From NCBI RefSeq assembly GCF_003334385.1, contig NZ_QOWN01000001.1: a stretch of 64,000 nt of DNA. One strand, written 5' to 3'. Both the position numbers and the translations under genes were made by a program. Origin of the DNA: Escherichia coli (lineage in GTDB: Bacteria > Pseudomonadota > Gammaproteobacteria > Enterobacterales > Enterobacteriaceae). Below, in pieces: positions 29,166-31,156 of this stretch (position 1 is its first letter; each line of letters starts with the position of its first letter). Below the pieces are notes generated by a model. It saw only the letters and a list, made by a program, of their open reading frames with translations, made no database searches and had not been told where the DNA came from.

Positions 29166-29326
29166 TTCTGGCCGGCTAACCCGGTCACATGGGATGAGGA
29201 GATAACATAATCTCCCTCCCACAAGCAGTAACTATAAAAATAACCCCACTCTCTACAAGGCTCGGGGCGCCCGAAAAAACGGGCATACAGGTTGACCGAC
29301 AACGATATAAATCGGAATCAAAAACT
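29166..29326 (+). promoter_or_regulatory. glmU-glmS intercistronic region / glmS 5' UTR (known GlmZ/GlmY-dependent control site)
   Basis: 161-bp untranslated spacer between co-oriented glmU and glmS. The regulatory role is established knowledge for E. coli, not derived from this sequence. Confidence 0.5.
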
Positions 29327-31156
29327 ATGTGTGGAATTGTTGGCGCGATCGCGCAACGTGATGTAGCAGAAATCCTTCTTGAAGGTTTACGTCGTCTGGA
29401 ATACCGCGGATATGACTCTGCCGGTCTGGCCGTTGTTGATGCAGAAGGTCATATGACCCGCCTGCGTCGCCTCGGTAAAGTCCAGATGCTGGCACAGGCA
29501 GCGGAAGAACATCCTCTGCATGGCGGCACTGGTATTGCTCACACTCGCTGGGCGACCCACGGTGAACCTTCAGAAGTGAATGCGCATCCGCATGTTTCTG
29601 AACACATTGTGGTGGTGCATAACGGCATCATCGAAAACCATGAACCGCTGCGTGAAGAGCTAAAAGCGCGTGGCTATACCTTCGTTTCTGAAACCGACAC
29701 CGAAGTGATTGCCCATCTGGTGAACTGGGAGCTGAAACAAGGCGGGACTCTGCGTGAGGCCGTTCTGCGTGCTATCCCGCAGCTGCGTGGTGCGTACGGT
29801 ACAGTGATCATGGACTCCCGTCACCCGGATACCCTGCTGGCGGCACGTTCTGGTAGTCCGCTGGTGATTGGCCTGGGGATGGGCGAAAACTTTATCGCTT
29901 CTGACCAGCTGGCGCTGTTGCCGGTGACCCGTCGCTTTATCTTCCTTGAAGAGGGCGATATTGCGGAAATCACTCGCCGTTCGGTAAACATCTTCGATAA
30001 AACTGGCGCGGAAGTAAAACGTCAGGATATCGAATCCAATCTGCAATATGACGCGGGCGATAAAGGCATTTACCGTCACTACATGCAGAAAGAGATCTAC
30101 GAACAGCCGAACGCGATCAAAAACACCCTTACCGGACGCATCAGCCACGGTCAGGTTGATTTAAGCGAGCTGGGACCGAACGCCGACGAACTGCTGTCGA
30201 AGGTTGAGCATATTCAGATCCTCGCCTGTGGTACTTCTTATAACTCCGGTATGGTTTCCCGCTACTGGTTTGAATCGCTAGCAGGTATTCCGTGCGACGT
30301 CGAAATCGCCTCTGAATTCCGCTATCGCAAATCTGCCGTGCGTCGTAACAGCCTGATGATCACCTTGTCACAGTCTGGCGAAACCGCGGATACCCTGGCT
30401 GGCCTGCGTCTGTCGAAAGAGCTGGGTTACCTTGGTTCACTGGCAATCTGTAACGTTCCGGGTTCTTCTCTGGTGCGCGAATCCGATCTGGCGCTAATGA
30501 CCAACGCGGGTACAGAAATCGGCGTGGCATCCACTAAAGCATTCACCACTCAGTTAACTGTGCTGTTGATGCTGGTGGCGAAGCTGTCTCGCCTGAAAGG
30601 TCTGGATGCCTCCATTGAACATGACATCGTGCATGGTCTGCAGGCGCTGCCGAGCCGTATTGAGCAGATGCTGTCTCAGGACAAACGCATTGAAGCGCTG
30701 GCAGAAGATTTCTCTGACAAACATCACGCGCTGTTCCTGGGCCGTGGCGATCAGTACCCAATCGCGCTGGAAGGCGCATTGAAGTTGAAAGAGATCTCTT
30801 ACATTCACGCTGAAGCCTACGCTGCTGGCGAACTGAAACACGGTCCGCTGGCGCTAATTGATGCCGATATGCCGGTTATTGTTGTTGCACCGAACAACGA
30901 ATTGCTGGAAAAACTGAAATCCAACATTGAAGAAGTTCGCGCGCGTAGCGGTCAGTTGTATGTCTTCGCCGATCAGGATGCGGGTTTTGTAAGTAGCGAT
31001 AACATGCACATCATCGAGATGCCGCATGTGGAAGAGGTGATTGCACCGATCTTCTACACCGTTCCGCTGCAGCTGCTGGCTTACCATGTCGCGCTGATCA
31101 AAGGCACCGACGTTGACCAGCCGCGTAACCTGGCAAAATCGGTTACGGTTGAGTAA
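29327..31156 (+). CDS. glmS: glutamine--fructose-6-phosphate aminotransferase
   Basis: 609 aa; N-terminal Cys (MCGIVGA) of the class-II amidotransferase domain plus two SIS domains. Confidence 0.98.

Follow-up and report, generated by a model that had tools for sequence, protein, structure and literature searches.

The glmU-glmS spacer of an Escherichia coli chromosome as the GlmZ-dependent leader of glmS, with a block conserved across Enterobacterales

The window analysed here, a stretch of 64,000 nucleotides, belongs to an E. coli chromosome and carries on its + strand the open reading frames atpD, atpC, glmU, glmS and pstS, in this order. In this series, glmU and glmS enclose the spacer that is the subject of this report:

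27795–29165, + strand: glmU, an open reading frame of 456 aa with the stop codon TGA at 29163–29165
29166–29326, + strand: glmU-glmS spacer, 161 nt, untranslated, the 5' UTR of the processed glmS mRNA
29327–31156, + strand: glmS, an open reading frame of 609 aa that starts with MCGIVGA

These coordinates are a plain fact of gene spacing, to which a test against chance is not applicable. The ends of the open reading frames bear out the first-pass annotation of this DNA, which had placed an untranslated spacer of 161 bp at 29166–29326, and an intercistronic region of the same length has been reported in E. coli (PMC4152352). The 301 bases around the spacer recur at 95–100% identity in 5425 of 5426 complete E. 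coli genomes, annotated there with glmU and glmS on either side. Among four divergent E. coli alleles, the differences fall mostly within 29164–29220 and include a TGA/TAA exchange at the glmU stop codon, while 29222–29326 is almost invariant. The full UTR folds more stably than its shuffles (z = -2.57). The two genes had also been claimed to be co-transcribed. We detected no intrinsic terminator in 29050–29450, and the single promoter-like match, a sigma-70-like GTCACA-16-CATAAT at 29184–29211, is of the kind of which 0.4 are expected by chance; glmU and glmS therefore look co-transcribed, which fits that claim. A dicistronic glmUS transcript from promoters upstream of glmU has been described (PMC2267818, PMC4152352).

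According to the literature, the 5' end of the leader lies at the glmU stop codon, where RNase E processing generates a glmS mRNA with its 5' end at -161 (PMC3439879, PMC2267818, PMC4152352); this agrees with the RNase E processing stated in the first-pass annotation. In the window this end corresponds to 29165/29166, the 5' boundary of the spacer. The sequence at the processing site, UGA followed by UUC, is A/U-rich and single-stranded in the predicted fold, and two stem-loops come next. The features of the 5' part of the leader are the following:

29163–29165, + strand: glmU stop codon UGA, located by the end of the open reading frame; RNase E cleavage site according to the literature
29169–29187, + strand: predicted stem-loop 1, UGGCCGG / CCGGUCA, just 3' of the processing site
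29190–29221, + strand: predicted stem-loop 2, GGGAUGAGGAGAU...AUCUCCCUCCC
29224–29232, + strand: (ARN)3 run AGCAGUAAC, candidate Hfq distal-face motif, probably ARN-1
29236–29244, + strand: (ARN)3 run AAAAAUAAC, candidate Hfq motif, probably ARN-2

Stem-loops 1 and 2 together reach -25.7 kcal/mol (z = -4.2), and a role in RNase E recognition has been suggested for the stem-loops that follow the processing site (PMC4152352). In E. coli alleles both arms of stem-loop 1 are changed with the pairs kept. Between genera stem-loop 1 is not conserved, and stem-loop 2 is conserved only moderately and is absent in Photorhabdus. As a separate observation, the first ~45 nt past the glmU stop codon are hypervariable between genera, and GC-rich palindromes, CCCCTCACCCC...GGGGTGAGGGG, are frequent there (loci L023, L027, L068, L091 and L118); they resemble repetitive extragenic elements that have inserted downstream of the RNase E site, ahead of the conserved core of the leader. 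The two (ARN)3 runs, found with a regular expression, are the only ones in the spacer. This number matches the two (ARN)3 Hfq motifs published for the glmS leader (PMC4152352, PMC3439879), of which ARN-2 is essential (PMC3439879); the assignment of the two runs to ARN-1 and ARN-2 in the above list is our own and is probably correct.

For the analysis of the pairing with GlmZ, the sequences of GlmZ (207 nt) and GlmY were taken from MG1655. Within the 64-kb window Rfam gave no match to either sRNA; its only matches were the 16S rRNA gene (1–1188, - strand, cut by the window edge), STnc410 (27554–27711, - strand, a full-length sRNA match with 188 bits, lying between atpC and glmU on the strand opposite to the operon) and AsdA, the antisense RNA of dnaA mRNA (59776–59856, - strand). 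GlmZ is found at ≥99% identity in 5425 of 5426 complete E. coli genomes, and glmZ is therefore almost certainly present in the source genome. A GlmZ target in the glmS 5' UTR had been flagged in the first-pass annotation as a site that could not be identified from sequence. This part of the claim did not hold, as the site is identifiable once the GlmZ sequence is in hand. We compared whole GlmZ with the 182-nt leader in a windowed duplex search, which replaced a whole-molecule RNAduplex calculation of GlmZ against the UTR that had returned a meaningless end-to-end duplex. The top local duplex joins GlmZ nt 150–181 with 29279–29306 (-24.4 kcal/mol), that is, the complementarity lies near the glmS start, where it had been proposed to look for it. 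It comprises the two half-sites of the target:

29287–29293, + strand: GlmZ target half-site 1, ACAGGUU (-40..-34), pairing with GlmZ nt 163–169 (GACCUGU)
29298–29305, + strand: GlmZ target half-site 2, GACAACGA (-29..-22), pairing with GlmZ nt 150–157 (UUGUUGUC)

This pairing was predicted by Urban & Vogel and validated with the compensatory pairs G-36C/C165G and C-27G/G155C (PMC2267818); a review gives the site as -41..-19 (PMC4152352). Our best duplex reproduces the published pairs together with both positions of the compensatory mutations, G-36 being 29291 and C-27 being 29300, with their partners C165 and G155 of GlmZ at the expected positions. The thermodynamic excess over chance is modest. 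The duplex of the single-stranded segment GlmZ 148–174 (-19.2 kcal/mol) was equalled by 11 of 300 dinucleotide shuffles of the UTR, and 4 of 300 shuffles of the GlmZ seed equalled the leader duplex. When GlmZ nt 148–172 was scanned along the 64-kb window, at least 12 sites beat the -19.2 kcal/mol of the glmS site. Hybridisation energy alone would therefore not identify the glmS site, and with this site outside the top 12 we dropped the best hybrid in the window as an argument. Likewise, the negative control GlmY formed a stronger raw duplex (-27 kcal/mol), solely through its GC-rich terminator stem with stem-loop 1, so that raw energies without accessibility are not discriminating. It is the position next to the ribosome-binding site, the agreement with the mutational data and the conservation that identify the GlmZ site.

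The published model for the basal state of this leader is a hairpin whose 5' arm is the GlmZ site and which hides the Shine-Dalgarno (SD) sequence (PMC2267818, PMC4152352); a SHAPE model has also been published (PMC3439879). The corresponding elements are located as follows:

29292–29299, + strand: 5' arm of the SD-occluding hairpin, UUGACCGA, in the predicted fold; it overlaps both GlmZ half-sites
29312–29321, + strand: 3' arm of the SD-occluding hairpin, UCGG-AA-UCAA, in the predicted fold
29314–29316, + strand: core GGA of the glmS SD (-13..-11); (A/C)GGA is conserved in 32 of 32 genomes
29327–29329, + strand: glmS start codon, paired with AUACA of 29285–29289 in the ViennaRNA minimum-free-energy (MFE) fold

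Folding of -75..+21 yields the published SD hairpin, with probabilities of being unpaired of 0.05, 0.50 and 0.99 for the SD bases GGA. The SD-occluding hairpin that the first-pass annotation had suggested looking for is hence present in the local fold (29292–29299/29312–29321). It is weak on its own, the helix in isolation amounting to only -3.9 kcal/mol. The MFE structure from ViennaRNA is an alternative, AUG-occluding fold (-7.6 kcal/mol for a 49-nt segment), which is also preferred in the full UTR. In this fold AUACAGGUU (29285–29293) pairs with AACU/UGUGU (29323–29326, 29328–29332) and hides the start codon, and CGAU/AUCG (29303–29306/29311–29314) hides part of the SD. The 49-nt segment is not unusually stable (z = -1.27; 21 of 200 shuffles fold as well). 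Compared with shuffles, the region of the GlmZ site has greater complementarity with the translation initiation region (z = -3.15, p about 0.01). With the GlmZ site barred from pairing in silico, mean accessibility went up from 0.46 to 0.78 for the SD and from 0.33 to 0.50 for the AUG. The 5' arms of both folds are the GlmZ target, and GlmZ binding would therefore open either of them; either fold may be the dominant one in vivo. Complementarity to GlmZ and an inhibitory structure around the glmS ribosome-binding site were thus both found.

We are highly confident that the spacer is the E. coli glmS mRNA leader, the documented post-transcriptional switch of glucosamine-6-phosphate synthase. On this account, glmU and glmS would be transcribed together, and the RNase E cut at the glmU stop codon (29163–29165) would leave a glmS mRNA with a 5' UTR of 161 nt. 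The segment 29285–29306 would fold back onto the ribosome-binding region, in the SD hairpin or in the competing AUG-hiding fold, and either fold would result in low basal translation and an unstable mRNA. Hfq docked on the upstream (ARN)3 motifs would deliver full-length GlmZ, whose nt 150–157 and 163–169 would pair with 29298–29305 and 29287–29293; this pairing would remove the 5' arm of either inhibitory fold and free the ribosome-binding site, a mode known as 'anti-antisense activation'. GlcN6P would set the availability of GlmZ via RapZ/RNase E and the decoy sRNA GlmY, giving feedback control. Geometry, complementarity, foldability and order-wide conservation are observations of the present analysis, and RNase E cleavage, Hfq dependence and the effect in vivo are taken from the literature.

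The locus is the same as that of the GlmZ-glmS system of E. coli K-12 (Kalamorz 2007; Urban & Vogel 2008, PMC2267818; Göpel 2014, PMC4152352), with which it has in common the 161-nt spacer, the UGA stop codon, the pairing residues -40..-34/-29..-22, the SD hairpin and the two (ARN)3 motifs. In sequence there is no difference; the only departure from the published description is that ViennaRNA favours the AUG-occluding fold over the SD hairpin. As in the activation of rpoS by DsrA, RprA and ArcZ, the ribosome-binding site is hidden by a leader hairpin whose 5' arm is the pairing target of an Hfq-dependent sRNA, and an upstream (ARN)x Hfq site is required. Unlike the rpoS leader, which is a primary 5' UTR, the glmS leader is intercistronic and generated by RNase E, and the two sequences are unrelated. 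As an example of how an sRNA activates a gene inside an operon, the system is textbook material. The step it controls is the first committed one in making amino sugars for the cell envelope, and the system also underlies intrinsic tolerance to inhibitors of GlmS. Control of the glmS leader by GlmZ is already known, and its confirmation here adds nothing new.

We scanned species-representative genomes with the pattern of the glmS start, MCGIVGA[IV]AQRD[VI], and obtained 120 loci, 34 from Enterobacterales and 86 from other Proteobacteria. Where glmU lies directly upstream, the spacer measures 107–279 nt in Enterobacterales, as opposed to 1–61 nt, or an intervening gene, in the outgroups. Within Enterobacterales, shorter spacers occur in three cases, namely two Rosenbergiella with 35 and 42 nt and a Pantoea that is an insect symbiont, with 77 nt. 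The GlmZ motif CAGG(U/C)-N2-8-G(A/G)CA, at ≤90 nt from glmS, is present in 29 of the 34 Enterobacterales and in none of the 86 outgroup loci; judged by this motif, the GlmZ site is order-specific. Half-site 1, CAGGU, is conserved in 27 of 32 genomes. Half-site 2 reads GACAAC in 17 genomes and GACAU(C/U) in 7; the first form is that of Enterobacteriaceae and Erwiniaceae, the second that of Yersiniaceae, Pectobacteriaceae, Morganellaceae and Hafniaceae. Both Rosenbergiella (L040, L100) and the Pantoea symbiont (L012) have neither the GlmZ site nor the invariant block described below, which suggests that they have lost the whole leader. Two further elements precede the GlmZ site:

29244–29267, + strand: nearly invariant core CCCCACUCUCUACAAGGCUCGGGG, with a 4-bp CCCC/GGGG stem and a 16-nt loop, from the conservation profile and alignment
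29269–29284, + strand: predicted hairpin H4, GCCCG-AAAAAA-CGGGC; its loop is A-rich, and the GlmZ site follows directly

RNAalifold on MAFFT alignments misaligned H4 and a second hairpin, H5, so we used folds of the individual species with shuffle controls. A hairpin at the position of H4, with differing stem sequences, was found in 27 of 31 genera (median z = -5.3), and H5, which separates the GlmZ site from the SD, in 28 of 31. H5 is missing in E. coli (where its position would be 29306–29311), E. albertii and Kluyvera. In the SD hairpin of E. coli, the 12-nt loop occupies the position that H5 has in other genera, and the SD-occluding hairpin of E. coli looks like a derived arrangement. Beyond Escherichia and a few relatives, pairing of the GlmZ site with the SD or AUG was not predicted by ensemble folding or duplex tests (mean z = -0.28). 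Strings complementary to the start codon overlap the 3' end of the site, namely ACAUC opposite GAUGU, and ACGCAU, ACACAU or ACAUAU opposite AUGUGU. This hints that the inhibitory fold differs among lineages, a lead only, as predictions vary with context: the folding of windows of about 100 nt depends on the context chosen, and two predictions disagree for Enterobacter.

These comparisons bear on an alternative explanation, in which GlmZ pairing mainly protects the transcript, against RNase E decay or against Rho loading on the C-rich leader, and the SD hairpin is an Escherichia-specific add-on. The GlmZ site is order-wide, yet only E. coli, E. albertii and a few others show significant complementarity between it and the initiation region, and elsewhere the ensemble models contain almost no pairing of the site with the SD. 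The segment 29201–29262, with 20 C versus 5 G, resembles a Rho utilisation (rut) site, and according to a review the pairing also stabilises glmS mRNA (PMC4152352). However, GlmZ alone activates in vitro translation with purified 70S ribosomes (PMC2267818), which shows a direct translational effect. The structural part of the argument is drawn from the same context-dependent folding predictions, and we found no published report of a Rho effect on glmS. We consider this explanation unlikely and retain the reading in which GlmZ frees the ribosome-binding site.

Within the spacer, conservation is highest in the block 29236–29267 (+ strand; AAAAAUAA-CCCCACUCUCUACAAGGCUCGGGG / AAAAAUAACCCCACUCUCUACAAGGCUCGGGG), above the level of the GlmZ site. 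Its motif UCUAC(A)AGGCUCGGGG is matched exactly in 29 of 32 genomes, ranging from Escherichia to Providencia, Photorhabdus and Budvicia, compared with 57% identity at the third codon positions of the adjacent glmS. The block is found in 31 of the 34 Enterobacterales versus none of the 86 outgroup loci, occurs as a single copy per E. coli genome and matches no Rfam family. Its 5' end is the (ARN)3 run AAAAAUAAC. In Photorhabdus the block begins one base past the glmU stop codon, so evolution has been able to dispense with the stem-loops and the first ARN run of E. coli, but not with the block. Apart from the (ARN)3 motif, we found no published role for the CCCC...GGGG part in the literature. 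As a second pairing site the block was rejected, its complementarity to GlmZ, GlmY and the glmS start being no higher than expected by chance (p = 0.81, 0.48 and 0.99, respectively). Motifs resembling sigma-32, sigma-E and CsrA sites were considered in it by eye and discarded, the required flanking elements or the GGA not being conserved. RNAalifold on the MAFFT alignments recovered the CCCC/GGGG stem as the sole stem, with no covariation because the stem hardly varies.

Two other explanations for the spacer can be set aside. Transcriptional control in the spacer, by an internal glmS promoter or a partial terminator, would draw on the one sigma-70-like match, but this match is at chance level and lies in the non-conserved part of the spacer, there is no terminator-like site in 29050–29450, and the promoters of the dicistronic glmUS lie upstream of glmU (PMC2267818, PMC4152352); we rejected it as very improbable. 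A cis-acting metabolite sensor in the leader, akin to the glmS ribozyme of Gram-positive bacteria (RF00234), a cis-acting, self-cleaving RNA with which the locus shares the gene, a like physiological need and GlcN6P feedback on the mRNA leader, could account for a highly conserved block otherwise unexplained, but scarcely deserves belief: Rfam gave no match to the ribozyme or a riboswitch upstream of glmS at gathering thresholds or at E-values up to 10, with only chance-level matches at the permissive threshold, a review states that the ribozyme is undetectable (PMC4152352), and the block is too short and nearly unstructured, with its 4-bp stem lacking covariation.

Within the GlmZ-dependent reading of the leader, we tentatively raise a possibility that we hold to be the less probable case, namely that the core of the leader is a larger module than a GlmZ site plus an SD hairpin. 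Such a module would consist, in order, of AUAAUAA, the block CCCCA..UCUAC(A)AGGCUCGGGG (29236–29267), H4, the GlmZ site, H5 and the SD. The block may bind a partner, for which a docking mode of Hfq/GlmZ, an RNase E determinant, a Rho determinant and another protein are candidates, and the SD hairpin of E. coli may be lineage-specific, having arisen after the loss of H5. Should the block prove to be recognised in its own right, glmS control would not be fully described by the current model. An order-wide invariant element of 24–32 nt that is more conserved than the sRNA target is the sole part of this locus that could matter beyond what is known, and the block and the lineage-specific SD hairpin are the only points that we would pass on for follow-up by specialists.

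A minor observation from the scan of the window concerns tnaA, a gene for which we found no link to GlmZ in the literature. Inside its coding sequence (52850–54280, - strand), a site at 53287–53308 (- strand) of the tnaA mRNA offers 13 contiguous Watson-Crick and 4 flanking pairs to GlmZ nt 151–168. The duplex, at -29.3 kcal/mol, is stronger than that of the real glmS site, and the chance expectation of such a GlmZ-complementary 13-mer in the window is about 0.025.
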